A stretch of 63,982 bases of DNA, filler included, from Dimargaris cristalligena (Eukaryota), in NCBI GenBank assembly GCA_003614675.1. It is 3 parts of 3 records of this genome, joined end to end, with 100 filler letters (N's around TTAATTAATTAA, not from the genome) between each part and the next. Parts side by side here need not be neighbours in the genome. Positions count along the whole stretch, not along the records: positions 1 to 21,757 come from ML002652.1; 2 more parts are not named here. The stretch is one strand, 5' to 3'. Every line of letters starts with the position of its first letter. Positions within the stretch are counted from its first letter, which is position 1. The translations under genes and the position numbers were made by a program. The notes below the pieces were generated by a model, which was given only the letters and a program-made list of their open reading frames with translations, had not been told where the DNA came from and ran no database searches. This document shows, piece after piece, positions 5,451 through 56,424 of the stretch.

Positions 5451-8400
5451 CTATTGCATCTTTTCCCGAATGAAGCCCAGGAACTGCTGATAGCTCATCA
5501 TGTTCATGTTTTTGTCCTCCACCAGGTGCGCGTGGAACTGACTACGAAGCTGTGCCGGTGCATCCTCCTTGACCAGCTGAAGTGTGGGCGCAAAAGCGTG
5601 GCGGGTTAGGGCCGCCAGGCGGGCAAGTATAGCATGAACCCGACGGGAAATGTCCGTATCTAACTGGGGCAGTCTTAGGGGCCCGCTGGTCAATTCATTG
5701 TATGAACCCACACTGAATAGGTCACGTAACAGGTTGGGGTGGGCGTCCCGGCCCATCCAGACATACTGTTCAGTAACGGAGTAGAGCAAAAAGACGCCAT
5801 GGCGGGCCAGTTTCTCACTGCTAAGATTGAGAGGGGGAGGTAGCTGAGTCAGGTTAGGAGCCTGGTCGCTAGGCAGGCCAGCTTCGGGTGAAAGTTCATG
5901 TAGGGGATAGAACTTCGCCAAAAGGTAGGTCTGGAGAATTTCAGGCGGCAGGGTGAGAACCTGGGCCAGAGCTGCCGTTCGGAGGTCGCTGGGATGGTGA
6001 ACCCCGGTGGCGGAACGCAGCGCATCGCCCTTGAGAATACCCAGAGTGAGAAGAGGCAAGAGGTTCAAGCTGCGGGGCACGGGGATCTGGCCGAGAGTAC
6101 CGTTGATGAGACCCAGCTCGGCCCGGTCTACGTTCAGCATATCTACAGTCTTGAATTCGACGGCCTTACGGGCGTCCTCCAATTTAGCGGACAGGACCCG
6201 GTCGGCGGCCTTCTTGGCGAGCAGAGCCGCCACAGCGACCTGGTCAATACCACGGAACAGATCGCGCACTTGACTCACAATGGGCAAGGCCAGGGTGGCT
6301 ACCCGAATACGACGTTCGCCGTTCGAAGAGGTGTAGAGCAGGGCTGATTGGAAAAAGGCCACGGGCCCAGCCAGGTCGTTTTCGAGGGCCACATCAGCCG
6401 CGTAACAGTGGTCAGGGGACACGTTCGGCAGGGCCAGTAAATCGGTACTCCGAAGGAAGTGGTGACCATAATAGGCAGGGAATCGAATACCAGGGGAAGC
6501 CCGAATACGGAATACGGCCTCCCATCCATTGTCCCGGGACAGAAACCGTTTCATTTCGGACATAACCTGATTCACATCTTCAGGCCGGGTGCTCAAGAAG
6601 CCCGGATACATATAGATGCTACCACCTGAGGTACGGGCCAGGGGGGCCAATGAGGCCAGGTCCACATAGCCGGAGGCAAAAACAAAAAAGTCCACGGTGA
6701 TCTGCAGGCCTAGGACTTGCTGGATAAACGAACTGTAGAAGGGGTCAGCTGGCTTGAGCAGGTCCGATTCTTTAGCCGTACCCGCGGCCTTGACATCCTC
6801 GCGGTTCTTGAGAGCACCCGCCTTGATATTGGGCAGGGCCGAGTGGCAAACAATGATTTTACCACCAATGTGCTGGATCAAGCGCTTGGCGGACTGAAGG
6901 GCGGGGCCAAGGGCGAAGCCGGTAGCGGTAGTACCCAGGAACATCTCGCCTAACCGACTGAGCAGGGCATCGATGGCCGGGCGACATTCGGACAGGTTAA
7001 CTAGCAGCTGATTGGGGTAGGGTAGGAAGGGATCATCCAAGTCGGGCACTACCAGCATCTGGGGCTCGGTGCCCTCGGGGGTGAGACTATAGAAATGTAG
7101 GGCCGAGTCTACCGTGATGAAACACACCATGGCGCGCCCGTCGGTGTTGGGGATCCGGTCCAAGCTTTCCAGAATGGCCTGGGCCATTACGCCAATGGAA
7201 CCGTTTTTGACGGCATCGTGGGACACGTCGATGATAAACACATAGACGGGAGGCTGCGGGGGACGACTCATATACTGGGCCGGGGCGACATATTCGACTA
7301 CGGAGTGGCTTAGTTCGGGACGTTGGAAGCGGTCCACGGGAACCTGCTGGTAGGCGTCGTAATCAAAAAAGGCCGGAACCTCATTCTTGAGGTTGCAGAG
7401 ATTGCATAGCCACTTATAACCACCATCGGTGAAGCGCACGTAGGGGTTCAGGTAGGTACGGCAACGACGACAACGGACGATATCATGCACCACAGGCAAG
7501 GGGCTCTCGCCCTCGTCATCGGTCTTGAATGGAGTAAAGGTAATACCGAAAAGCAACTTGGATTTCTTGAGCAGAGAAGCGGAGTTGGGCACGCAATTTA
7601 AGGTGGAGCGCATGTGTTTGCCGTCACAAGGCACATAGTGCGGGGTCGCGGCAGTCTGGGGAGGCAGCACCACGGGGGGCAGGGGTTGTTCCAAGGTCCA
7701 GATCTCGGGGGGACCAGCTAATAAGGCGGATGCGGCCCCGGCATTATGGGCACCGCTGAAGCCCATATTACCGAATTGGTTGGACAGCGAAGCCATGGGG
7801 TCCTGGGCGGCATAACCCGGGGAAGCGGGGGAACGCTGGTGCCCTGGATTCGGAACGGGTGCGGCGGGAGCCTCGCCCGGCACAAAAAACTGCGGAGCCT
7901 GGGTGATCTGAGAAGGGGCGGCATTGGGAGGATAGCCAGCGCTGGAGGGCAGGGGAGGGGCACCAGCCTGGGCGTTGGGCTGAGTATAGGCCGATGTGAT
8001 CTGCTCTGGATAAAGCCGGCGCCGGGCACCATGCCCCGAAGTGGATCCGGACATGGAGGTGGGGCTGCGGGGGGTATCAGAGGGCACAGGTGAGGCGGGC
8101 GGGTACGAAGGAGTTGTGGGCCCATGCCGGGGGCTAGCAGCGGTGGGGTGTTGGGGTGGGGACATGGGGCGCTGCGAACCAGGACCAGCGACGGCATACT
8201 GGCCCGGATAGGGAGCAGGGGGGCGCTGGCCGTACATAGCGGGCCGTGGGCGGACGCCGTAACTAGCGCCGGGGGCCGGCGAGGGTTGGCCGGACCGCGA
8301 GGGCTGGGGGCGAATCGACTGGGGAATCCCGCCCGGAGGTGGCTGGAAATTCATGGGACGACCGGGAGCACTGGCGGGCGGGTAGGGGGGTCCCTGCGAA

Positions 8401-8588
8401 TTCGGTGGGGGCCGGGGTACCCCAGGACCTCCAGCGGATTGGGGAGGCCTGGGCCGGGGTTGGCCCATGGCACCAGGAGGGCGAGGGCGGGGGGCGGCAC
8501 CGTACGGACCAGGTTGCTGGGGCGGCTGTTGTGGATATGAGGGTGGGGGTGGCCGTTGGGGACCACTTGGCGGCGGCTGCGAATTCAT
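5451..8588 (-). CDS. SEC24: COPII coat subunit Sec24, intronless CDS, 1045 aa
   Basis: Pro-rich N-terminus, zinc finger RCRRCRTYLNP..WLCNLC, trunk motif PPVYVFIIDVS, beta-sandwich GERRIRV, gelsolin-like C-terminus. Confidence 0.97.
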   Translation of the reverse strand: MNSQPPPSGPQRPPPPSYPQQPPQQPGPYGAAPRPRPPGAMGQPRPRPPQSAGGPGVPRPPPNSQGPPYPPASAPGRPMNFQPPPGGIPQSIRPQPSRSGQPSPAPGASYGVRPRPAMYGQRPPAPYPGQYAVAGPGSQRPMSPPQHPTAASPRHGPTTPSYPPASPVPSDTPRSPTSMSGSTSGHGARRRLYPEQITSAYTQPNAQAGAPPLPSSAGYPPNAAPSQITQAPQFFVPGEAPAAPVPNPGHQRSPASPGYAAQDPMASLSNQFGNMGFSGAHNAGAASALLAGPPEIWTLEQPLPPVVLPPQTAATPHYVPCDGKHMRSTLNCVPNSASLLKKSKLLFGITFTPFKTDDEGESPLPVVHDIVRCRRCRTYLNPYVRFTDGGYKWLCNLCNLKNEVPAFFDYDAYQQVPVDRFQRPELSHSVVEYVAPAQYMSRPPQPPVYVFIIDVSHDAVKNGSIGVMAQAILESLDRIPNTDGRAMVCFITVDSALHFYSLTPEGTEPQMLVVPDLDDPFLPYPNQLLVNLSECRPAIDALLSRLGEMFLGTTATGFALGPALQSAKRLIQHIGGKIIVCHSALPNIKAGALKNREDVKAAGTAKESDLLKPADPFYSSFIQQVLGLQITVDFFVFASGYVDLASLAPLARTSGGSIYMYPGFLSTRPEDVNQVMSEMKRFLSRDNGWEAVFRIRASPGIRFPAYYGHHFLRSTDLLALPNVSPDHCYAADVALENDLAGPVAFFQSALLYTSSNGERRIRVATLALPIVSQVRDLFRGIDQVAVAALLAKKAADRVLSAKLEDARKAVEFKTVDMLNVDRAELGLINGTLGQIPVPRSLNLLPLLTLGILKGDALRSATGVHHPSDLRTAALAQVLTLPPEILQTYLLAKFYPLHELSPEAGLPSDQAPNLTQLPPPLNLSSEKLARHGVFLLYSVTEQYVWMGRDAHPNLLRDLFSVGSYNELTSGPLRLPQLDTDISRRVHAILARLAALTRHAFAPTLQLVKEDAPAQLRSQFHAHLVEDKNMNMMSYQQFLGFIREKMQ

Positions 8589-9831: not shown

Positions 9832-10723
<892 letters not shown>

Positions 10724-15468: not shown

Positions 15469-18215
15469 TTAAGACCCATTGATCCTGGATTATGGTGTGC
15501 GAGGATGAGAAAGAGGGTCGGATGGAGACTTTTTGAAAACCAGCAATAAGGATTAGCTCAGCCAGAAGCCCCCTCCCTCATTACTTTTTCACTTGACATG
15601 ATTTGTGCTGCGTTCATTTATTTACCATTACGGAACAAGTAAATGGCATCATTGTCTGTATATCCACCCATTTATCGCTCGATTCGCTTATGAAGTGTAT
15701 GTGGGTGTGGGTGTGAGTGATACTGCCTCAGTCAACTCCTCCCCCCCCCCACTCACACAGCTCGCACCGTATAACCCACCCACAGTGTGTATAGGTGGGT
15801 GTGGTATTGTACGGATGTCCACGAATCGGGCTAACCCGGAAATACCCTCGACATGAACCAATCAAGGGAACTAAGCCATCGGGCATTTCAGGACCAAACA
15901 TGCCGAATCGGGAAGGCCAGGTGAATAGGTGTGTGTGTGGAGCCAAGAATAAGTTGCAAGGGGCCTCTCTGCATGATTGGCCAGTAAATGGGGTATACAA
16001 TGAGCAAACGGTATGCGAGAAAGACAGAAGGAGGAGGAAGAAGAGACTCGACGAAAGGCGGGGCGGCGTTTAATTACCATTTGGGATATTTTGGGTGGTT
16101 TATCCACTAACATGGCAGCGGGAATCCACCACGCCCACATCCTCGCTGCACATTAGGCGCGAAAGGAAATCGCCATAGTAGGAGTGGAAATCGCCATTTC
16201 TTCCGATAATAAAGCAATTGTACTGGCTGGGCCAGTGGAGTAAGGGTAACACAGGTAACTAACTAACTAATTAGTTGACTGACCGACTGACTGAACAGCC
16301 AGTAGTAGAGTGCCTCCTACCCTATTAGGACTACACCAATAAGCCTTATACAGTGGACGTCGTGTGGGGGAGGAGGGATTTTCCTACTTCAAGGGCTAGA
16401 GAGAGTAGAAATCCCGGGAGAGGCCTGCTGGAGATAGACGAGGGCGGTATTCAGCAACTATGCATGGAGGAAAAGGACCATTGTCCTCTTCATTGCACTT
16501 TGCCAAGGCAATGAATGCCAAATGGACCAAGTATACGTAGTTTACTTACTCTCCCCGTCGGCCTCTGCCACCTAATGGGGGGGGGTCTGCACCAACAGCT
16601 TTAATAACCCACTGGAAGGGGTGGGTTTACAGTCTGTTCTAGCGCCACGCACCTCCGGCGGAGGGCGCGGTCTGGACCAGCAGCAGCAGCAGCTAAAAAT
16701 AGGCGCACCCCGACTGCTTGGGGGCTTCCAGAGTCAGGGATATCACCACACCGGTAATTAAAACCGGGTCATCGCCACCATCGGATACTAAACTCCTCTC
16801 ACTTGTCTTGGCCACACCAGCCAATATGTTTTAGACGCCTGCCACGGCAGGTTTTAGGAGTAGTACACTGTTGCCCCTATACGCCAACACCACCAGCAGC
16901 AGCAGCAGCTTTTAAGCTGGGCCAGCGGGTGTTATTCAGCCAGCTCCACTAGCGGTGCCTTTTCCCTCGCCTGTTCGTCGTTGGTGCTCTGAGGTACCAA
17001 AAGTGGGTTGTTTTGGTTTCCTGGCGTAATACAACGTGTAAAAATAATTGTCCAAAGCGAACGTTGACTGGGGATGGGCCATAGTAGTGCAAGGGGGAAG
17101 TGCGACGCTGGCGGGAATAACGTTGTGCCGCGCACCAAGTATGCTAAAATGACTTGGCTGCAGTCTGCATAGCTGCAGCCGGCTTCATGTTTCCAGACGT
17201 CTCTTCTTTAACCCCTCCGCCAGGTTGATTGTCTGTAATTACTACTACAACCCATCGTCATCGGGGGGAGTGAACAGGCCGATGGAGAGGATGAGGGGAG
17301 AGAAAAAGCCCCTGCCGCCTGGAACGGGAGGAGCCGCGTTCATTTAACACTGCAGTCCCTATTTTTAGCAAGTCCGGGCGTTTTCGGGTTCGTGGTGGTA
17401 TTACCCTATAGGTGTGGCTGCTAGAAGGGGTTGGCTATATAGTTAGTATACTCTATAAGAGTGTGGGGATGGGGATGTTACACCGCCACCACCACTACCT
17501 ATCCTCCAGAAACGCGTTTATCAGTTCATACGCCCAAGTAAGGCCTATCATATTGTCGAAGATGTGGTGTCGTTGTCAGCAGCATTATACGGTATCCATG
17601 ACGAACGAAGAGAGGGGAAGCGACACATCTAATCTGGTAGCTACCTACTTACTTACTTATCTAGGCATATGTAGGGCCGGGGTTCTTCCTGGTCGCGGAG
17701 CAAACCGGGGGATAGATCACTCTCACTACGCTGGGGGATAGCACGAGCGAAGAACCTGAACAGATAGATAGATGGAGGAAGAAGGGAGGGTCCCCCTAGT
17801 TCAAATGGGAGGAGGGAGGACCCTATTTTATTGGTGGGTGGTGCTTGTGACAACTGTGTACTCTTTAGGTGTGAAAACCACACCCTCCCTTGGGCCAATG
17901 GCAACTAACTAGGGCTGTGACGGCTGTTTTTCAGGCGCCTATCTGATCCCCCAATGGCTGCCCGCTCTAAGCTTAACTATACCATTCCATTGGCCCCGGT
18001 TTTTTTATATGTTGTGCATGCACCCCACTTCACCATCCTCCCTCTTTCCAACTCCTCTTCTGTTTTTACACTATCTATATATGCATTTTCTATTCTTATA
18101 TACGCATTAGTAGAAGAACTTCACCTTTTCATCTATTGTGACTAACCTAATACCTCCCGCTCTCTCTCCTCCCCTCCCCTCCTCCCTTTGTTCCTAAACT
18201 GCTCGCGTTTCCCCC

Positions 18216-18225
18216 ATATATATAG
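18216..18225 (+). promoter_or_regulatory. TATA-like element upstream of PCK1
   Basis: atatatatag flanked by CT-rich tracts, ~120 nt before the upstream in-frame ATG at 18346. Confidence 0.45.
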
Positions 18226-18522
18226 ACCCGTCATTTCCCTCTTCGTTTTATCCTCACTTCTTGTCTATTCCACCGCCAGCTCTCGCCCTCCCCTCTGTTT
18301 GTCTATTTACTAGCCCTTTTCTTCTTGTTGTTTGACGACCCTTGCATGTCGCCGACTCAGCGTATCATTTCCCAAAGCCCGTTTTTCTGTCGTTTCACCG
18401 CCGCCTCCCACCGCCCCTTCTCCATACCCCGTTTATTTTCCTCCGCCTGCCCGCATTCCCGCTACGCTACCAAGCCCTACTCAATACTTTCCAAACCCCA
18501 GCCCTCCCGTTCTATTAACACC

Positions 18523-20157
18523 ATGGTTCACTCCTCCCGTGTCTCCACCCCGGACTCCGCGTCCATTGAAATCGCCCTGCACCAGTCCGACGGTATCGAC
18601 TACCACCGCACCCACATTTACCGCAACTTGTCCGTCGCCTGTCTGTACGAAGATGCCCTCAAGTTCGAAAAGGGCACCTACATGTCCTCCTCCGGCGCCC
18701 TGATCACCTCCTCCGGTGAAAAGACCGGTCGCAGCCCCAAGGACAAGCGTATCGTCGAGGAAGAAGATACCCTGCACGATATCTGGTGGGGCCCCGTCAA
18801 CACCAAGATGTCCGAGCGCGTCTTCCGTATCAACCACGAACGTGCCGTCGACTACCTCAACACCCGCGAGCGCCTCTACGTCTTTGACGGTTTCGCCGGA
18901 TGGGACCCGAAGTACCGCATCAAGGTCCGTGTCGTCTGCGCCCGTGCCTACCACGCCCTGTTCATGCGTAACATGTTGATCCGCCCCACCGACGAGGAAC
19001 TCGCTGACTACGGCGAACCCGACTTCACCATCCTCAACGCTGGCCAGTTCCCCGCTAACCGTTACACCACCGGTATGACCAGCGCTACCAGCGTCTCCAT
19101 CAGCTTCGAGCGCCGCGAAATGGTCATTCTGGGTACCGAATACGCCGGTGAAATGAAGAAGGGTATCTTTACCGTCATGCACTACCTCATGCCCAAGTCC
19201 GGCGTGCTGTCCCTCCACTCCAGCGCCAACGAAGGCCCCGACGGCGATGTGTCCCTGTTCTTCGGCCTGTCCGGTACCGGTAAAACCACCCTGTCCGCCG
19301 ACCCTCACCGTGCCCTGATTGGTGACGACGAACACTGCTGGTCCGACGACGGCACCTTCAACATCGAAGGGGGCTGTTACGCCAAGTGTATCGACCTGTC
19401 CGCCGCCAAGGAACCCGAGATTTTCAACGCCATTCGCTTCGGTTCCGTCTTGGAGAACGTCGTCTTCAACGAAGAGACCCGTCTGGTGGACTACACCGAC
19501 AGTTCCGTCACCGAAAACACCCGGTGCGCTTACCCCATTGAGTTCATCCCCAATGCCAAACTGCCCTGTGTCGGTGGTCACCCCAAGAACATCATCCTGC
19601 TGACCTGTGATGCCTTTGGTGTGCTCCCCCCCGTCGCTCGCTTGACTCCCGCCCAGGCCATGTACCACTTCATCTCCGGCTACACCGCCAAGATTGCCGG
19701 TACCGAAGAGGGGGTTACCGAACCCGAGGCCACCTTCTCGGCCTGCTTCGGCCAACCCTTCCTGGTCTGGCACCCCGTCAAGTATGCTTCCATGCTGGCT
19801 GCCAAGATCCAGCAGTACGGTAGCAAGGTCTGGCTGGTCAACACCGGCTGGAACGGTGGTGTCTACGGTGTGGGCAAGCGTATCTCCCTCAAGTACTCCC
19901 GCGCCATCATTGACGCTATCCACAATGGCGAGCTGGCCGACGCTGAATACGTCAACTACCCCACCTTCAACATCGACATCCCCACCTCGGTCACGGGTGT
20001 CCCCAGCGAGGTGCTCAACCCCCGCTCCGCCTGGGCCGGTACCGATGCCGAGTTCGATAACACCATCACCAAGCTGGCTACCCTCTTCAACAAGAACTTC
20101 AAGGGCTACGCCGACCGCGCCACGCCTGAGATCCTGTCCGCTGCTCCCCGCATTTAA
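18523..20157 (+). CDS. PCK1: Phosphoenolpyruvate carboxykinase (ATP); possible longer isoform from ATG 18346
   Basis: [19 protein letters not shown], kinase-1a [31 protein letters not shown]. Strong C-ending codon bias and good start context (acaccATGg). Confidence 0.98.
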
Positions 20158-21524
20158 TTCGACGTTGGGCCTTCCATTCCCTCTTATCATTCAGCATAGC
20201 CTCCTCCCCTCCCCCATGGCGGGGGCCGGACTGAGTTTGTGTTGTTTCAACTGGCCACTTAGTTTCATTCGACCTATTTAATCCACCGTCCTTTAACCGT
20301 TCTTTATTAATGGGGTCAATATTTTACCACCGCCTGCCCAGCCCAATGCCAAAGGGTAGCGAGGCGTAGTTTGTTTGTACGAGAGTGTACCTCTCTATTT
20401 CTAAGGGTTGCTCCTCCTCTTCAAACCTAACCTTCATTTCCATACTTCCACCCGGCGGTGTCCCAAACCATTTTCCTTATTTATCTGTATCATACCTCGC
20501 GGTCACACTGATAAACTGTCATTAACTCACTCTTCTCCTCCCCCTCCTTTGCTCTCCCAAAATAAACTGTGCAACCGTTCATAACCAAACTATTCCCCTG
20601 GTTTACCCTATTGTTGCGAACCCTGTTTCGATGATCGATCTTGATGGGTGTGTGTGCCGAGTGGGCCTGGCTGTGTACTACTTCCCTGGCGTGATGATCC
20701 GAATACCCATCCCTCATTCTCGGACACTTTACCATTCTTTGGTGGGAATGGATTCTTCCCATAATGGCGGTTATCTATATCACCTCCCCCCTCCTTTCTG
20801 CTCTTGAAAAGAGCTAATTATCAGCTGAAGAGCACATGCTGCCTTTTTACAGGCCCATAGTCCAATCTGGAGTGCTTCCCAGCCCCACATCCCGCTAAAC
20901 CAATCGGGGCTAGGATGTGACTGTTGTTCTCGTCGCCGTGAATAATATAAAACCCCCATGTGATATTCTGTCGGGGGGGGGAGTGGTTATTTATAGAGAT
21001 TATCGGCCGTTAACTGGTTGTTGGACTATTCTCCGGGTCTGCAAGGTCCCCCTTTCCTTCTTCCAATAGGCATGGGAAGGGTGGTGGGGTGTGTCCTTTC
21101 CTCTACTTGGGTAGTGGCTGGAGAACACTGTGGCTAATTGAGCGTGTCATTTCAATATAGAGGATGAATTCTCTTTATTCAATTGGGCGACGCAACAAGG
21201 GTGGTCCCAGAATAGAAAATGGGGTGGTGATTTAAATACACCGTTACATCTTCGATTGGCACCGGGGCTTTGTTTTAGTTGATTGGTGCTTGATTATTAT
21301 TGTGGACATATATATGTGTGTGTGGATTAGGGGGGGGGGTATGGTATGGTGATTATTGCCGGTTGGTTTATTTTCTAACCTGTGAAGTCATTTAAATATC
21401 GTTTGGCTGAAATATTAGCTTAGCTTAGGGTCGGTTTGCCTTGCATAGAGTGCCTGCATATTCTCCTTCTCTAAGAGCACATATTACTGTGATTGATCCA
21501 TACTCTACATAATTATAAATTCCG

Positions 21525-23596: not shown

Positions 23597-26500
23597 CTAG
23601 GCCTGCTTGGGAGGTTGGCGGCTGCCAAGGAGCGCCTGCGCCAGAGCAGCATTGGCCTCCTCCACGCGGCTCTTGCCCGCAGCAGGACTGTTAGGGTTCG
23701 TCGGCTCCTTCTGAATCTTCATGGCCTTGAACTGATTCAATAGAGAGTTGGTCAATTGGCTAGTGGGGTTAACGTTGCCACTGGGGGCGGCCTTATCAGC
23801 GGGATGGCTAGGGGCCGGGGCGGGAGTCGCCGCAGGCAAATTGGATTTAGGCTTCGGGGCGGAGCTCTTCCGCTTGGGTTTGGTCTTGGTCGGGGCCGGG
23901 TTGGGGACCAATGTGGAGGACGAAGCCGAGGCCGAAGTAGGGGTGATGGCCGCCGGAGCGGTTGGCTTAACCGGGGAGGGGGGCACCATAGGATGGGCTA
24001 CGGACTTGGGCTTCGGGGCCGCTGAAGTTTTCTTACCTGGCGTCCCGTATTTCTTGGCCGCGGCCTGAGTCGGCGGGGCATTATCCGTTTGAGGTTCTTT
24101 CTGACCGCGACGCACGAACTGCGGGTTAGTCACATTGAGCAAGTGGCGCTTGTGTAGCATATAGCCCCGCTTGGCAGAGCACAGCCCATTGAGGTTGGTG
24201 CCGAGGGGGAAAGGGGCGTCAAGGATCAGACCCAGGAACTGGTCGGAGATACTGACCACGAAACCACGGGCTCCGAAAGGTACGGCCATATTGGGAGTCA
24301 GGTTCACTACACGGTCACCCAACTCAAAGGTCTGCTGATCCAGGCGCCGGCTGGCTTCGCCGGGTTCCAATACGGCGGGGCGGGGCACATTGGCCACCGA
24401 AATGTCCTTGGCCTGCTTGTCATTATAGGCGTGGTGGTCCTGCAGGAAGGCATCCAGTCCCTGTTCCAGAGCAATCGCCGCTTCGGGCAGGAAATTGTCG
24501 CCCTCCGCATCGAGGTAAATGAGGCAGTCCAGGTTCAGGCCCCGGATGAATTCAATGAGCGCAGTAACGTCGGCACCCGTGATTTTATCACCGAAGATAT
24601 CGAAGGCACTCACTTGGGTATCCTGGGGCATAGCCGTCAGACGCTTGAACAGGCGGGGGCACGCAGCCTGGTACAGCTTTACCAGGTTGATGGCCCGGGT
24701 CGAGAACTGCCATATGTTGTCGATATGACGAGCATATCCGGCAGCAGCGGTATTATCCGCCGGCCCACAGAACCGCAGACCGATATCGAATTCCCGCCCG
24801 TCAGGCAAAGTCATGATAAAATTGGAGCACAGTCGGCGGAGCACATTGTAGGGGATTCGGAGGGCATCCACCACGGCCATGGCGTCGTGGAACTCCTCCT
24901 GGGTGGTAAACCGGTGACCGAACTGGTTCAAATCGGTCTGGAATTGCAGGTAGCGGGCCTCGGTGGGCTGGCGGTACACGGACATACCCAAGGTCAACAG
25001 GTGGTTCTTGGACTTCAGAATCTTGGCCGACTGGCCGTAGAACGCCGGGGCTAGGAAGAACACGGATTCGCCCACGGGTAACCACCGCTCCTTCTGGTAG
25101 AAGGGGCGTTCGGCGAATCGGTGATCCTTATTGCGGTATTGGTGGATAGTTGCCTTCAGGGGTACGAACTCCATCTGGTCTAGCGGGGCGTATTCTCGAC
25201 GCAGCCAGCCTTGCTCATCTTCCCGCATACCCATCATCCGCACCACACCCAGTACAAGTTGCCATTTCTTAACCACCAACCCACGGTGGGTCATCTGGCC
25301 CACGTTGTTCCGTACTTTGGAGCGGATGGTATTGCGGTCCCGGTCAGTCATTGGGAGCGCAACCACCTTGCCCTTACCCTCGGCGGAGGGCGAAATAGTG
25401 TACACATTGTGGTCATCGTGTACCGAAACTACCTTGGCCTGAGTAAGGTAGGGCCAGTCAATCAGCACAGTGCGGCTGATAAGGCGGGATGCGATCTCCT
25501 GCGGCGAGGAGTGCTTCTCGAGTTGACAGTCGTTGAGATAAATCACAATACCATCTCGGGAGCTCTTCAGGTTAGACACCTTTACGCCAACCTTTTCGAT
25601 TTTCCAGTGGTGGGGTAGGCTGTAGAGACTGGGGAACCCGGGCAGCATGCGGTTGCCCGTCAGAGCGCCGGGGCAAAGTCCACTAACCAGCCGCCGGTCT
25701 TCACCCACCGGGGGGTTATGTTGATCGACCAGACGACAGCGGTTTTCAGTCAAATCGGGAAAGAATTCGGGCATGGGGGACGGGTACGGGGGTTGTTTCT
25801 TGGCCGCTGGAACGAATAGTAAATTCTCGGCAAATCGATTACGACGCTTTTCGGCCGCACTGAGAAGGTGTTCACGGGCCTTCATGGCCGTCAGAAGGCG
25901 CTTACTTTCGATAAACGGAATCAGCACCACTGCTTCATAGCTCTGACGCTTGCCGTTCAGATCCGTGCGGAACGCGCTGGGGTAAAAGTCGATGATGGGG
26001 GACTCGCTGTCGGTGAACAAGTCGTGGTAGGCGGCAGGCAGCAGGTCCCGGCTGTAGGCGGGCAGGACCCCCATGAGTTGCTGGAAGGGTAGGAACGGCT
26101 TGTTCTCATCGAAGGTCAGCTTCAAGTCCTCCAAGTCGTGGATGTCGGACAGCATCGGGGCATAGTGGTACGGGTAGAAGTAGCTCCAGGATACCAGGCC
26201 GTGGTAGTAGTAGTGCAATGCCCACTGCATAATTTTAACGTAGTGGTAAACCATTGTACGGACCTGGGGAGAATCCTCCCGGTAGTCCCAGCCCATCTTG
26301 CTCTTGTAGTACTTCTTGTTAACAATCCGGTTCGGTTCCAAACGCTTGACGGGGGCGTCGCTGGCCTCCTCCAGCAGGGATTGGTAACGGATGAACACCG
26401 GTACGATACTAGCGGCAAACTCGGCCACCTTGGTGGAATCATAGGGCGGGAAGGGCAGTTGCAGCGTGAGGGGTCGGTCGGGCTGGTTCGTATCGACGCC

Positions 26501-28377
26501 AATCTTCAGGCCCAGATTAAGGCCCGCTTCCTTGATAAAGGTGCGATTGTCCGGGTCGGAGTCGTTCAGGGTGATTCGGGGCTGGTCACGTTGGGAGACA
26601 AACTTATAGATCACGTCCAAGAGAGCACACTGGGCCGGGGTGATGTAGGTGGGGAAGTGCTTCTCCGTGGCCTTAGGGTTGCGGAAGAGCGGGTGGGTCG
26701 AGATCTTCTCCTTATCGGCGACAAAATCGTACACGCGCAGGCCGTTGAGGAACGCCGTAAAATTGGGCAAATTAATAATGCCGTTCTCGGTCAGATAGCC
26801 GGACAGGGTCGGCAGAATGGTCTTGTAAGCGGCGAAGAGGAATAGCATCCCCTGTTTACTAATGTGCAGGTCGACCAAATGGGGCACGAAATCGTTTCCG
26901 AGGAGCATGATAATGAGCACAAAGTCATCAATGACCCGTTCGATGCTGAAGGGGAACCGAACTTCGCGTTGCACGTCTAAAAAGTCGAGTTCAAGGTACT
27001 CGCGCAGGAGCTGTAGATGGTAGAGCAAGAAGCGCGGGGGGGTATCCTTGGGCGGGGCAGTATCGTCCTTGCGGCGGTCACCATAGATGATCTCCTCGCG
27101 CAGAATGGCCATGTGGGGCTCGTGAGTTACCAGGCCGAGTACGATCAAATCAGCATCCTGCCCGTAGAGGCAGTGGCGGGTGTTGGGGTCGTAGTCAGGC
27201 TGGGCCTTGGCCTTGCGCATGAACTCCATAATCTTGTGCTCGCCTTCACCGGGAACCTCATGACCGGATAGGATCACCTGGACGTTTTGCCATTCCCGGT
27301 CCTCGCTCACCTTCTGGGCCAGGAAGTACTTGAGGAACACTGTGAGCTTTTCCATGAACACAGTACCCGGGGTAATGCAGTTACTATCGAAGATATCACT
27401 CTTGCCCGAGACAACACCTTCGTTTACGGCCTTTTGCAGATTCACCTCCGATTCCGCCGCAGTGGTGAAGCGACGGGCTCGTTGTTGGTTCATCTTAGCA
27501 CGCGGTGCCACACCTAGGGTTCGGTAGTTATGATTTACATAGGGGAGTCAATAATGGGATTAGTATGGCTAGACTAAGGTTTGTCAAATGTGTACTGCTA
27601 TATACTCCGGTATAGCCAAACCGGTGGCGGGGAGAAGGCAGTGGGGGGTCTATTGAGGTACTTACCATCAATGGCGATAAAGAACACTTTTTTCGGTTTT
27701 ACGTTATTGAAGAGTGTCTCGATGTACTCAAATATCTTTGGAAATAGTATCTGGTCGGGAATCGCGGTGGTGGCGCTGCCCTCCTGGTTGGAGCGACTGC
27801 AGTTGTGGATAACTCCGTTGACATCCAGGTAGAGGTTGTCTGCGGATGGTGTAGTGAGTAGAAGGCAATGCGCGTATGGAATATGATAACAAGGCACCGG
27901 GTGCGGATAGGGGGGTAGTTAGCGAACTGAACGAATGGTCACCAAGTCGGGTGGGTACCAGCACTGGCATTATTCTAGTCGAGCCAGGGCCTCGAAGGAG
28001 TAATCAACTTTAATAGTGGTGTAGACGTGGGACTTACCGAACTCGGGATAGATGGAGTTCTCGATCAATTGGTAGCAGAGCGGATAGCGCTCACTATAGA
28101 TAATAGCAAAGTAGAGGATAATCGTCAGTAGTAATGGTTAGTATTTGGGTGGCTGGACAAGCCAAACTAGTTTACGGGCTTAATCGGGGGCCTAAGCCAT
28201 TTTCGAGCCGGAGAATAGCGAATGCCTCCTATTTTACGGGCCAAGTAGAGATGCCAAGCCGGGCGAAACCCCTCGCTACTCGTATGTCCCAAATATACGT
28301 ATATATATATATGTATAAGGCATTCGCTTGAATAGGGGGACCTACCTCATCCAGAGGAAGAATTTGGGAATACCCAT
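23597..28377 (-). CDS. XRN1: 5'-3' exoribonuclease Xrn1; exons 28377-28346, 28093-28038, 27839-27666, 27513-23597
   Basis: Spliced N-terminus MGIPKFFLWMSERYP..EFDNLYLDVNG..AIDGVAPRAKMNQQRARRF, plus PGEGEHKI, DADL, GNDF and a C-terminal SH3-like FELGDRVV. Confidence 0.96.
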
Positions 28378-40473: not shown

Positions 40474-41751
40474 ATGTCTTCTCAGCCCACTACTACGTCT
40501 CAAAAACCAGCTCTGAATGGTGCGAAAATAAAGACCCGCAAGCGTGAAAGCAAGGCCAATGCCAAGTTCGACCCGGAGACTTTCCGCGAGCAACTGCTAA
40601 CTATTATTGACGAAGTCGACCCCAACCAGTTTGATTCCGTCTACGCTAAACTCGACGTTACCGGCAACACCCTTGACTACCGTCGCTACGGCGAGCCGCT
40701 CTTCGAAATCCTCATCACTGGTGGCATCATTGCTCCCGGCGGTATCATCGAAAAAGACGACGACGTGGAATCCCGCTACAACGTGTTTGCCGTCGAAGAT
40801 TCCGTTGCTGCCATCCAGCCCCATGTTGAGGTCCTGAACAAGCTGATCCGTCGCTACAAGTACCTTCTGCGCCCCCTCGAGGAAACCCTCAAAAACCTGC
40901 TCCAACATGTCAATAAGTTCTCCACGGCGGAGGCCAACAAGCTCTCCATTTTGGTTGCTCTGCTTATCACCCATCAGCTTATTCCGCTCACCATCGTGAC
41001 CGCTCTGCTGAACGACCACCTGGTCAAGGAAGGCATTGCCCTGGTATGCCTCACCTCCATTCTCCGCGTCTGCATCTCTATCCAGGGGGTGCCCCAGCTC
41101 GGCCGTTACCTCAAGAAGGGTAAGCTGGACGACCGTCTCATCGAATTCTTCCCCCCCAACAAGCAGGACGAGGAAAGCTTTGCCCGTCACTTCGAGGTCG
41201 AGGATATGAAGGCCGTGGTTGAACTGCACAACAGCATCCGTGAGAACACCCACAAGGCCGAGCTCACCGATAGCGTGCGCGAAATGATCGAGGAGGAGAA
41301 AACCGACACCGAGATCGTGCTCCACCTCAAGAAACTGGTCAAGGAGCACCAGTGGACTGAGTCCGACGTGATTGGCCTGATCTGGGACGGCATCATGTCC
41401 GCCGTCGACTGGGCCACCCGCCCCGAAATCATTGAGAGCCAGACTCTGCGTCAGGTCAAGGACTGGTCCCGCGTGTTGGCCTTCTTTACCACCCAGCCCC
41501 GGACTGAAGTCGAACTGCTGGGCCATGTCCAGGTCTACTGCTACGACAATGCCAAGCTGATGAAGTTCTTCGCTAACATTGTCCGTATTCTGTACGATAA
41601 CGACGTCCTGTCCGAGAACGCCATTCTGTTCTGGAACGCCAAGGGTGCCAAGCCTCAGGGCAAGAGCATCTTCCTGAAGCAAATGGAGCCCTTCGTCGCC
41701 GCCCTGGAAGAAGCCTCTGATGACGAAGAGGAGGACGAGGAGGAAGAGTAA
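40474..41751 (+). CDS. BZW: eIF5-mimic protein 5MP (BZW, W2 domain)
   Basis: QKPALNGAKIKTRKR, LDYRRYGEPLFEILITGG.IAPGG, KLIRRYKYL, W2 domain with LYDNDVLSENAILFW..GKSIFLKQM and acidic tail. Confidence 0.93.
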   Translation: MSSQPTTTSQKPALNGAKIKTRKRESKANAKFDPETFREQLLTIIDEVDPNQFDSVYAKLDVTGNTLDYRRYGEPLFEILITGGIIAPGGIIEKDDDVESRYNVFAVEDSVAAIQPHVEVLNKLIRRYKYLLRPLEETLKNLLQHVNKFSTAEANKLSILVALLITHQLIPLTIVTALLNDHLVKEGIALVCLTSILRVCISIQGVPQLGRYLKKGKLDDRLIEFFPPNKQDEESFARHFEVEDMKAVVELHNSIRENTHKAELTDSVREMIEEEKTDTEIVLHLKKLVKEHQWTESDVIGLIWDGIMSAVDWATRPEIIESQTLRQVKDWSRVLAFFTTQPRTEVELLGHVQVYCYDNAKLMKFFANIVRILYDNDVLSENAILFWNAKGAKPQGKSIFLKQMEPFVAALEEASDDEEEDEEEE

Positions 41752-51968: not shown

Positions 51969-53880
51969 ATGGCCTCCATACCAACGGCCGCTTCACTCCC
52001 GGAGCCCTATAGCACCGAAAGCAACCCCCTTCTGGTCCCGGGGGGTATAGACGGCCGCGACTCCGCCCACTTGGCCACCCTTCCTCTGACGGACCACAGC
52101 GAAACCGGCGAGGTCCTGTCCGACTCCTCCCGCCTGGCCCTCACCGGCTACGCCCTATTTGTCGGACTCGTCATCGCCCTGTCGTCCGTCCAATTCGGCT
52201 ACCATAACGGGGAACTCAATACCCCCAAGGAGGCCCTCACCCACTGTGACCTTACCGACCCCGCCCGAGTCGGTGGGGGTGCGGGTAACTATTTGCCGAC
52301 CCTGCCGCCCTGTCTTCCCATGTCCGATATGACCTTTTCGTTTGTGACGTCGATTTTCACATTAGGCGGCCTGGTTGGCTCCCTTTTGGCCCCCACCTTA
52401 GCCGACCGTTGGGGTCGTAAAACGGCCACGGTCGGCAATAATATACTCTATATCCTGGGGTCGCTGGCCATGGGTCTGGCTGTAAATGTGCCCTGGCTGC
52501 TGGCCGGTCGGTTTTTGGTGGGCGTAGGGTGCGGAGTGTCAATTGTGGTGAATCCCATGTATTTAACCGAAATTGCCCCCCGTCCGTGGCGCGGATCATT
52601 CGGTAAGTTGTCGCAGTCATGAACTGATTTTATATCGTTCCTTTCCCCCTTCTGTACCTTGTGGATCGATTTACCACCTTGTATACCTGGCTGCTAGATC
52701 GACTCGCTTGTCCTGACGAGTTTATACGCCCTTGAATTTCGTCTAACCAATTCCCAATCAGAACTTGACTAACCCCTCTTGTATAAAATTTCGTACAACT
52801 CTATTCGCTATATACCTAGGCCTGTTGAACCAAATGGGCATTGTCTGTGGCTTACTATTTACCCAAACCCTTGGCTACTTTCTTAACAATGTCCCAGGTT
52901 GGCGTCTAGTTCTGAGCATGGGTATTCTGCTCAGCGTCCTCCAACTCTTTCTCATCATATTTTGTGTGGAATCCCCCCAGTATCTGGCAGCCCAGGCGGG
53001 CAACGACATCAAAGCCCGCGCCAGTCTGTGTCGGTTACGGGGAACTATGGATGTAGACCGGGAGTTGGCCACATGGCAAAACGTTGCCCAAAGTGCCTCG
53101 AGCGCTGATCCCACGGAAACTGTGACTTCGTTTGCGTCGGTGAATGAAGAGGCCCGACTACTCCCAGGCTCACTGGGTGACGACCGTTCACCCATTGCCA
53201 CTACATTCCCCACTACCGCCACTGTTGCTGCCCCCGCTTCTTCCACCCTGGGCCTGGGCACCCTCTTCCGGTCAAAGCTCTACCGCAAACCCCTGCTCCT
53301 GGCCCTACTGATGCAATCCGTGCAGCAATGGTCGGGTATCAACACCGTCTTTTTCTATTCCACGGTGATTCTGAGTGCCATCTTCCCCGGTCGCGAGGGG
53401 ATCCTCACCGTCCTCATCAACGTCTTCAACCTCATCGCCACCATTGTGTCAGTGTCCCTGGTCGACCGCCTAGGTCGTCGCCCACTCCTGCTCGGCTCTA
53501 TGGTGGGTATGGCCGGGGCGCTCCTGGTGTTGGCCCTTTCCATCCAATTCCCAACCCCTGCCGTATCGCTAGTGGGTCTGTTCATGGTTGTAGGCACTTT
53601 CGCCGTCGGCTTGGGCCCCCTGTCTTTCCTACTGTCCGTTGAATTGGTCGACATCCGCGCTACGGCTACCGTATCCGCCCTCGGTTTGGCGGCTAACTGG
53701 ATTTCGAATTTTACCGTATCCTCCCTCTTTCTTCTGCTTAATAAGAGCATGGGCGGGTGGGTATTTATCCTGTTTAGCGCGATCCTACTAGGGGCCGGCT
53801 TGGTAGTGTACAAATTCGTACCCGAAACGAGAGATAAGACGACCCAGGAGATTTGGCGTGATATGGGCCTGATAAAGTAA
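51969..53880 (+). CDS. MFS sugar porter (GLUT / Vps73-YBR241C-like); intron 52603-52819
   Basis: QFGYHNGELN, DRWGRK, GRFLVGVGCG, PMYLTEIAP..RG, VESPQYL, QQWSGIN..FYS, DRLGRR, GLGP, PET motifs. Confidence 0.93.
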
Positions 53881-54654: not shown

Positions 54655-56424
54655 ATGTCGTCATTATGGGCCTTAGGCTCCAATTCGGGCGGTCAATTGG
54701 GCCTTGGAACCGAAGACGACGCCCATTCCCCTCAACCTTGCCGATTCCATCCCTCCCCGGGCCCAACCCCATCCCCACACAGAGCCCCAACCGGTCGTTT
54801 CGATCCTTCTTCACCCCACGCTAACACCCATTTAGCTACCCCCTGGCGTAAACTCACCGGCGGTGGCAACCATGCGGTGGCATTGGCCGAGAATGGACAA
54901 GTATACAGCTGTGGTAGCAACCAGGACGGCCAGCTGGGTATGACCAAACCACCGAATATGCTTAGCCCGTTGTCTGGGTCAACAATACCGACCACTTCTA
55001 CCAATAGCAGCAGCAGCAGTAGTAGTAGTGGGCAGTCTACTATTCCGGCATGGGTGCCCTTCTGCTTTCCAGTCTTGGATCCCCCGCTAGCGTCCTCGGA
55101 AGCGACCAAGGAACAAATCTGCGGGCCCGAGTGGGCGGGGTTTACCTGGACGGATGTGGCCTGCGGATGGAACCATACCCTACTATTGGCTGGCATCGTC
55201 GGAAAGGTATACTCGTTTGGCCACAATGGATTTGGTCAGCTTGGTCGTCCGTCGGAAACGCTAGCGCGGGAAACCAAGGGGTGCCAGCCTAGGCCATCAC
55301 CTACTACGGTGCGGCCCTGTGAAGGGCGACTGCCAGTTAACGAGGATACCAACGGCAACGACAATGACAACGGTGAGGATAAGATCAATGATCCGACCGA
55401 GGTTTGGAGGGTTAATTTCCCCTCGGTCTCGCCGGAGGTACATATTGTCCAAGTAGCGGCGGGTCTCCGCCATTCATTGGCTTTAGATTCTGTCGGCCGG
55501 GTCTGGGGTTGGGGGATCCACCGCCACGGCCAACTGGGACCCGGGATGTCGGAAGCGGGTGGTGTTAACCCCACTACCGGCCGCAACCGGTTTATTTCCC
55601 ACCTACCCCGTCAGTTGCAGCAGCTACCGCCGATTCGCCAAATCGCAGGAGGTCAACACCATTCGGCTTTCTTGACCCAAACCGACCGGGTCCTGGTGTT
55701 TGGCTCCAACAAATACGGGCAGCACGGACCTCCAACGACGTCGTCAGTTATGACCGATCTTGCTACTGCTACTGCTACTATTACTACTACTACGCCTGCC
55801 GCAGTCATTGGTACCGTTGCCACGATATCGCCCTGTATTGAACTACCTCATGATGCACCAGTGGCTAAACTGGTTTCGGGTTGGAGCCATTTGGCTGTGC
55901 TGCATACGGATGGTCAGGTTTTCACTTGGGGCCGCAGTGACCGGGGCCAGCTCGGTTGGGAACCGTCGGAAACGAACAATCAGGGCCAATTCAGCGCCAT
56001 AATAGGGCAGGTCCACTTCCCCGTTACGCCTAGTTCATTACCCACTACTACCCCTGCAGGGGTGCAATCTACTACCATCACCACCACCGCCCTTACCACT
56101 ATCACTGGCTCCGAGATAAGGAAGGCCGCCCACCAGACACCCCAGTTGACGGCAATCGACCTTAGCTGTGGATCTGAGCATACGCTGGCCCTCGCCTGGG
56201 ACGGTAGCTGTTGGGCGTGGGGCTGGAATGAACATGGCAACTGTGGAGAAGAAACTTGTACGGACGTCAAGTGCCCCCGCGTAATCCGGATTTCCCCTGA
56301 TGCTTCGACTGGGGAAGAAGGGGGGGACTGGGCCAAGGTTGGTCGTATAGGCTGTGGGTATGGGTTCACCCTATTAGCACCCGACCAGCCACCACTATTA
56401 CCGCCGCCATCTGTAGCCACATAG
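54655..56424 (+). CDS. ATS1: RCC1-repeat protein, Ats1/Kti13-SERGEF-like, with Ser/Thr-rich insertions
   Basis: MSSLWALGSNSGGQLGLG.EDD..SPQ, repeated GxNxxGQLG and ACGWNH/AAGLRH/CGSEH blades, WGWNEHGNCG and GCGYGFT C-terminus. Confidence 0.75.
   Translation: MSSLWALGSNSGGQLGLGTEDDAHSPQPCRFHPSPGPTPSPHRAPTGRFDPSSPHANTHLATPWRKLTGGGNHAVALAENGQVYSCGSNQDGQLGMTKPPNMLSPLSGSTIPTTSTNSSSSSSSSGQSTIPAWVPFCFPVLDPPLASSEATKEQICGPEWAGFTWTDVACGWNHTLLLAGIVGKVYSFGHNGFGQLGRPSETLARETKGCQPRPSPTTVRPCEGRLPVNEDTNGNDNDNGEDKINDPTEVWRVNFPSVSPEVHIVQVAAGLRHSLALDSVGRVWGWGIHRHGQLGPGMSEAGGVNPTTGRNRFISHLPRQLQQLPPIRQIAGGQHHSAFLTQTDRVLVFGSNKYGQHGPPTTSSVMTDLATATATITTTTPAAVIGTVATISPCIELPHDAPVAKLVSGWSHLAVLHTDGQVFTWGRSDRGQLGWEPSETNNQGQFSAIIGQVHFPVTPSSLPTTTPAGVQSTTITTTALTTITGSEIRKAAHQTPQLTAIDLSCGSEHTLALAWDGSCWAWGWNEHGNCGEETCTDVKCPRVIRISPDASTGEEGGDWAKVGRIGCGYGFTLLAPDQPPLLPPPSVAT

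Follow-up and report, generated by a model that had tools for sequence, protein, structure and literature searches.

The gene for ATP-dependent phosphoenolpyruvate carboxykinase (PEPCK) in the fungus Dimargaris cristalligena has a second ATG in frame and upstream of its strong start codon, which raises the question of whether one gene supplies both a cytosolic and a mitochondrial enzyme, or whether the upstream ATG is an unselected feature of the leader. Dimargaritales (Kickxellomycotina), the order concerned, are parasites of moulds. If the extension encoded from the upstream ATG works, an ATP-type enzyme would make PEP in fungal mitochondria, and the route of carbon out of the TCA cycle in these mould parasites would be altered. 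If it does not work, the locus serves as a warning that pyrimidine-rich leaders mimic presequences with open, basic, acid-free frames. In this study, we analysed a window of 63,982 nt, filler included, which joins three parts of the genome assembly GCA_003614675.1. Positions count along the whole window, and the features are listed in Table 1.

The downstream ORF at 18523 is an ATP-type PEPCK with a full-length family match. Together with the upstream extension it forms an intronless ORF of 603 codons (18346-20157, plus strand), and the 603-residue form matched PF01293 (PEPCK_ATP) with an E value of 1.5e-226 and 753 bits against a cut-off of 26.5, residues 90-555 covering profile positions 2-465 of 465. 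Nucleotide binding by a P-loop involves a motif of the GxxGxGKT type, and GLSGTGKTT is present in the translation. The 544-residue protein is 100% identical to the database protein P0001, which shares its cluster with a protein labelled Dimargaris cristalligena, and its identity is 90% to the enzyme of Tieghemiomyces parasiticus, 87% to that of Dispira simplex and 84% to that of Dimargaris verticillata. The third codon positions of the coding sequence are strongly biased, with 61% C. An antisense ORF of 569 codons (window 18481-20190, minus strand) spans the whole PEPCK gene; it is not a gene but results from this strong C3 codon bias.

Table 1. Positions of the PEPCK locus, its upstream elements and the neighbouring genes in the window
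Feature	Position	Strand	Remarks
Sec24	5454-8588	-	
Adenylate kinase	10175-10720		
Inverted CCAAT-box-like decamer pair	17892..17996	+	GGGCCAATGG at 17892-17901, CCATTGGCCC at 17987-17996
TATA tract, likely core promoter	18217..18224	+	TATATATA; 129 nt before ATG 18346, 306 nt before ATG 18523
T-rich leader or promoter segment	18226..18345	+	T 42%, C 37%, G 12%, A 10%
Upstream in-frame ATG	18346..18348	+	context ccttgcATGtcg, T at -3, T at +4
In-frame extension, 59 codons	18346..18522	+	C 44%, T 27%, A 17%, G 12%
Main start codon of 544-residue PEPCK	18523..18525	+	context aacaccATGgtt, A at -3, G at +4
ATP-dependent PEP carboxykinase CDS	18523..20157	+	intronless, 544 codons + stop
Xrn1	23600-27493	-	
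5MP/BZW-like protein	40474-41748		
Sugar transporter, two ORF pieces	51969-53877		
RCC1-like protein	54655-56421		

On the plus strand between 18082 and 18522, the ATG at 18346 is the only one. The sequence-only reading of this stretch had placed it in frame with ATG 18523, 59 codons ahead and with no stop in between, and had called its context poor and that of the downstream ATG strong; sequence and translation confirmed the arrangement, the bases around both ATGs are as given there, and the translated extension agreed letter for letter with the peptide proposed there. A count of residues returned the same 6 Arg and 2 Lys with no Asp or Glu, the RLFS and RYA motifs were recovered with RPFS in addition, and the TATA-like tract noted near 18216 lies at 18217-18224. 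The anatomy of a two-AUG dual-targeting gene is present, namely no intervening AUG or stop, a U at -3 of the upstream AUG against A at -3 and G at +4 of the downstream one, and a TATA element upstream. The PEPCK frame is closed by a TAG at 18223-18225, formed from the end of the TATATATA tract, and through the segment 18226..18345 it is open but contains no ATG. The extension peptide contains 8 Pro, 12 Ser, 2 Leu and 4 Ala, and its longest stretch free of Pro is 11 residues.

The spacing from TATA element to start is usually 30-120 nt, and a TATA at 18217 would therefore put ATG 18346 inside the mRNA as its first AUG; on the position of this element, the upstream ATG is likely to be transcribed. 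For comparison, the first ATG was inspected in 10 other ORFs of the window, whose starts are unverified; a pyrimidine stands at -3 in 4 of them and a T in 2. Given this frequency of pyrimidines, it is plausible that some N-terminally extended PEPCK is made from ATG 18346, although its context looks weaker than that of the main start. The leader is not significantly depleted of ATGs (one ATG seen; 74% of shuffles have at least one). Farther upstream than the TATA tract by 220-330 nt, the decamers GGGCCAATGG and CCATTGGCCC form an inverted repeat of 10 nt, 100% complementary and 85 nt apart. They resemble CCAAT boxes, are probably upstream promoter elements, and may serve a gluconeogenic promoter as sites for CCAAT factors. 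CCGN7CCG sites occur 50 times in the window against 36 ± 6.7 expected; none lies between 17709 and 18400, and they are thus uninformative on the PEPCK promoter.

Chance rates were obtained from 5000 dinucleotide-preserving shuffles of 18226-18522. The last 59 codons stayed free of stops in 33.8% of the shuffles, and 16.7%, or about one in six, acquired an in-frame ATG from which the frame stayed open as far as the main start. With so little G and A in the leader, few stops occur in any of the frames. The PEPCK frame runs open after the TAG at 18223, frame 2 is open from 18314 onward, and frame 3 has no stop between 18336 and 18515. An upstream in-frame ATG with an open path is therefore no more than chance gives in a C/T-rich leader. 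Acidic residues were absent from 63% of 1511 stop-free shuffles of the extension, and 13.2% of the same set combined zero acidic with at least 8 basic residues. Net charge over the first 40 residues is +5 for the extension, +5 for frame 2 and +4 for frame 3. The presequence-like charge pattern is largely compositional. A second control, made up of 617 overlapping stop-free C/T-rich frames from 30 window loci outside long ORFs, favours coding in the PEPCK frame: 0.3% of these non-coding frames had zero acidic and at least 8 basic residues.

With 8 basic and no acidic residues (net +8), the extension has the charge expected of a presequence, a non-specific property in which the other frames are alike. 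The R-2/R-3 consensus for MPP cleavage is R-x-[FYL]-[SA]; sites of this form are RPFS at 23 and RLFS at 29, with RYA at 39 in addition, and two or more such sites were found in 1.9% of 1557 stop-free shuffles. The maximum hydrophobic moment of the extension is 0.51-0.55 over 11 residues, as given by a home-made heuristic that is not a validated predictor, and this value falls inside the spread seen for cytosolic N-termini as well as that for the long PEPCK forms of Kickxellales, described below. A regular expression for the Tom20-type pattern phi-x-x-phi-phi had no match in the extension. The heuristics based on hydrophobic moment and Tom20 motif fail to separate positives from negatives. Ala and Leu together account for 4 of the first 40 residues of the extension, compared with 11-13 in 6 of the 7 scored Kickxellales long forms and 4 in the remaining one, P0051. 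An ER signal peptide was rejected on inspection, as the extension is without a hydrophobic core.

Whether the extension is coding was examined from codon usage and composition. By codon log-odds with PEPCK's own table, the PEPCK frame scored -23 bits, against -87 and -70 for the other two frames; this score was reached by 0.2% of 530 stop-free shuffles and by 0.8% of the 617 CT-rich non-coding frames. A table built from seven other genes of the window gave a weaker result (5.3% of shuffles, 13.5% of CT-rich frames). Codon usage leans to the PEPCK frame with p between 0.002 and 0.13 according to the null, and is overall equivocal. The density of CG per 100 nt rises from 4.2 upstream of 18346 to 7.9 in the extension, compared with 9.1 in the CDS, and both CG density and C content move toward CDS values exactly at 18346. 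Three-base periodicity was absent from the extension (chi-square p 0.13) and pronounced in the first 59 CDS codons (p 1.2e-6). G occupies the first codon position in 4 of the 59 extension codons versus 18 of 59 in the CDS, and 7 of the 59 are absent from the 544-codon CDS. Sliding windows of 20 codons came near the CDS level solely at 18346-18405; at 18406-18465 the score is at the level of the other frames, and 18226..18345 is non-coding-like in all frames.

Comparison with relatives supported the downstream start. Every one of the 9 annotated Dimargaritales PEPCK models contains the main-start Met, as part of MV[HQ], and 8 of these 9, the window's own included, are annotated to start there; in the extended one this Met is internal. 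The only extended model among the 8 other annotated Dimargaritales PEPCKs is P0124 of Dimargaris xerosporica (573 residues), which has an in-frame extension of 29 residues, basic and acid-free, ending in RKYHASAA before the conserved Met. P0007 of D. verticillata, a near-identical relative of P0124, is annotated without an extension. Upstream of Met 18523 conservation collapses, and alignment, judged by eye, revealed no similarity between the window extension and that of D. xerosporica. Among 18 candidates for short protein fragments in which a relative might read through the leader, 2 matched, neither of them from Dimargaritales. The pipeline used for the relatives, Funannotate, gave the short start to a D. 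cristalligena strain. According to the available part of PMC9866270, the low-coverage genomes of the relatives were annotated ab initio with this program; neither the short nor the long Dimargaritales models rest on transcripts.

In the sister order Kickxellales, many species of Coemansia and Kickxella have a long PEPCK with a presequence-like N-terminus beside a short form. Long forms are P0051, P0062, P0067, P0077, P0095, P0096, P0101, P0107, P0113, P0115 and P0118; short forms have 513-533 residues, and the others are long or 5'-cut and carry an N-terminal extension. These extensions start with MLRRTLAT, MLRRSLAT, MLPLRRTLAT or MLRTSRLLAT, are rich in Arg, Ala and Leu, have 0-1 acidic residues in the first 40, and share a conserved [RK]-x-x-YS[HQ]AA[RK] block. 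Their conservation between genera indicates that they are coding. The long N-terminus has the classic look of a matrix presequence, which makes these proteins candidate mitochondrial ATP-PEPCKs.

They resemble the window in coming from the same subphylum and the same enzyme and, as in P0107, P0095, P0062 and P0067, in having an acid-poor, Arg-rich extension (about 30-70 residues in Kickxellales) before the ancestral N-terminal segment. They differ from it in that each is a gene of its own, present in addition to a short form, and lacks an internal Met where the short form starts; they are also Ala/Leu-rich, begin with MLRRxLAT and share YS[HQ]AA, and their mitochondrial location is putative. 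A profile built from 10 long Kickxellales N-termini was tested against each extension. The window extension scored 2.1 bits, reached by 22% of 1000 shuffles, and -1.1 bits with the motif-only profile, reached by 75%; for the D. xerosporica extension the values were 1.2 bits (79%) with the full profile and -0.4 bits (50%) with the motif-only profile, so that neither extension was recognised by either profile. A search for further long forms with residues 1-80 of P0107 as query found only P0107 itself among 92 candidates.

Dimargaritales and Kickxellales each formed a clade of their own in a tree based on the core alignment (support 98 and 100, respectively), and for this reason the duplication in Kickxellales cannot be dated to before their split. 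In the tree of 40 PEPCK cores the long and short Kickxellales forms interleave, and the short and long forms of Kickxella, P0032 and P0062, are sisters, 96% identical from KLRRNLS onward, with unrelated N-termini. The grouping of the 10 long forms in a single clade was rejected by an AU test (p 1.7e-65); this group was named after the tree had been seen. These observations suggest gene conversion between the copies, or that their first part was exchanged repeatedly.

Several known systems resemble the arrangement considered here. Animal PCK2 is a mitochondrial PEPCK of the GTP family; as in the proposal for the window, mitochondrial PEP synthesis stands beside a cytosolic isoform, but the PEPCK family is unrelated, the gene is separate and the presequence is dedicated. 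HTS1 and VAS1 of yeast each supply two locations with protein by means of two in-frame starts. In such yeast proteins, as in the window, the standard form is untargeted and a basic N-terminal peptide comes from an in-frame start farther upstream, and neither stop nor AUG lies between the starts; for the window, start use and import are putative. The available text of Monteuuis et al. 2019 (PMC6582344) describes upstream N-terminal extensions in yeast that create cryptic mitochondrial targeting signals, the upstream starts screened there being near-cognate codons whereas that of the window is an AUG. The sequence-only reading had assigned animal mitochondrial PEPCK to the GTP family, and as a premise for mitochondrial PEPCK in general this proved too narrow: according to Nitzsche et al. 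2017, as cited in PMC6561023, Toxoplasma gondii PEPCKmt is a plant/fungal-type (ATP) PEPCK in the mitochondrion, so a mitochondrial location is not confined to the GTP family. Toxoplasma PEPCKmt is like the proposal in being an ATP-family enzyme in mitochondria, and unlike the window in being an apicomplexan, dedicated isoform whose location, according to the same source, was established by experiment. In our literature search, no fungal ATP-type PEPCK turned up that is described as mitochondrial, nor any account of the presequence-like long PEPCK of Kickxellales.

Taken together, we favour, with a probability of about 0.6, an ordinary leader with an unselected in-frame upstream AUG and a cytosolic enzyme made from 18523. 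The 544-residue ATP-dependent PEPCK would be made in the cytosol from the conserved, strong-context ATG, and ATG 18346 would be part of the pyrimidine-rich 5' leader. The open frame and the basic, acid-free peptide would be by-products of G/A-poor sequence, since a leader poor in G and A has few stops, few GAN codons and plenty of CGY codons. If ATG 18346 is transcribed, ribosomes stopping there would yield some extended protein, and this implies neither selection nor import. The near-open frames, the shuffle rates, the absence of periodicity, the scarcity of first-position G, the 7 codons that the CDS never uses, the Pro-rich and Ala/Leu-poor peptide, the 8 of 9 short models and the lack of similarity all argue for the ordinary leader, which is built on the leader anatomy, chance rates and conserved downstream Met as observed. 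Against it stand the codon score of the PEPCK frame, the two R-x-[FYL]-[SA] sites, the step in CG, the 0.3% of CT-rich frames, the D. xerosporica extension, the Kickxellales forms, and the TATA tract that places 18346 inside the mRNA. Where transcription starts, that the upstream AUG is used and that the extension has no function are points that we infer. A main start at 18346 that had been mis-annotated, with an essentially mitochondrial enzyme, is very improbable: after the TATA box, the first AUG to be met is the upstream one, and a T at -3 in 2 of 10 other, unverified ORF starts suggests that its context may not be prohibitive, but all 9 Dimargaritales models conserve Met 18523 together with the residues around it, its context is strong, and upstream of it there is the collapse of conservation, a non-coding-like first-position G and no periodicity.

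Functional dual targeting, kept by selection, is rather unlikely. It would have a minority of ribosomes start at 18346 and add a 59-residue matrix presequence, cleaved near RLF/SS, RY/AT or KPY/S, while the majority scan on to 18523 and give the cytosolic enzyme, so that PEP is also made in mitochondria. The absence of AUG and stop between a weak and a strong start with a TATA 129 nt upstream, the net charge of +8 with no acidic residue, the two R-3-like sites (1.9% of shuffles) and a codon score specific to frame 1 are consistent with it, as are the basic 29-residue extension of D. xerosporica with RKYHASAA directly before the conserved Met, and the MLRRxLAT start and conserved YS[HQ]AA of the Kickxellales long forms. 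Precedents are, within the text available of each paper, the mitochondrial ATP-type PEPCK of Toxoplasma (Nitzsche et al. 2017, as cited in PMC6561023) and the cryptic signals from yeast upstream extensions (PMC6582344). However, all chance controls that bear on the ordinary leader apply here too; the extension is Pro-rich with a longest Pro-free run of 11 residues and only 2 Leu, and has no detectable similarity to other extensions. The models of the relatives are also ab initio, by the available part of PMC9866270, and the D. xerosporica extension may thus be an unselected open leader. Accidental import, in which a low-level extended form partly enters mitochondria, unselected and with no metabolic role, seems improbable to us. 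Random sequence readily yields targeting sequences (Baker and Schatz 1987, as cited in the accessible part of PMC4607531), the charge pattern follows base composition, and the extension shows no conservation signal, all of which would agree with such import; but PEPCK is codon-biased (61% C3) and presumably abundant, and selection should act against the mis-sorting of any sizeable share.

A broader, unlikely proposal is that Kickxellomycotina put ATP-PEPCK into mitochondria by two routes: Kickxellales by a dedicated presequence-bearing copy, and Dimargaritales by just one gene that has an additional AUG, in frame and upstream (59 codons ahead here, 29 in D. xerosporica), the product being imported and cleaved near the cytosolic N-terminus. 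If true, this would be the first fungal mitochondrial PEP synthesis reported, and the two orders would form a natural pair of 'one gene, two starts' and 'two genes'. The Kickxellales long forms together with the D. xerosporica extension make mitochondrial PEPCK in the subphylum a testable hypothesis. The Kickxellales forms are a firmer lead than the window extension, and these saprotrophs are culturable and fractionable.

Other PEPCK records differed at the N-terminus or in their annotation. Mortierellaceae PEPCKs (P0041, P0042, P0044, P0048, P0072, P0085 and others) have a conserved His/Ser-rich N-terminal extension of 60-90 residues, SHYPQQSHPG.HHKAYHPDPE, which includes acidic residues and is not presequence-like; it may be a regulatory or metal-binding tail. 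P0002 (751 residues, ENA) is a PEPCK homologue with 67% identity over half of the query plus AAA_33/AAA_18-type kinase domains; it represents a fusion or, alternatively, gene models that were merged. The name 'Protein kinase C-like 1' is attached to many fungal PEPCK records; as all of these match PF01293, it is probably an error derived from the gene symbol PCK1. Besides the genes in Table 1, the window codes for a WD40 protein and a synaptobrevin, and several of the neighbouring genes are split by introns.
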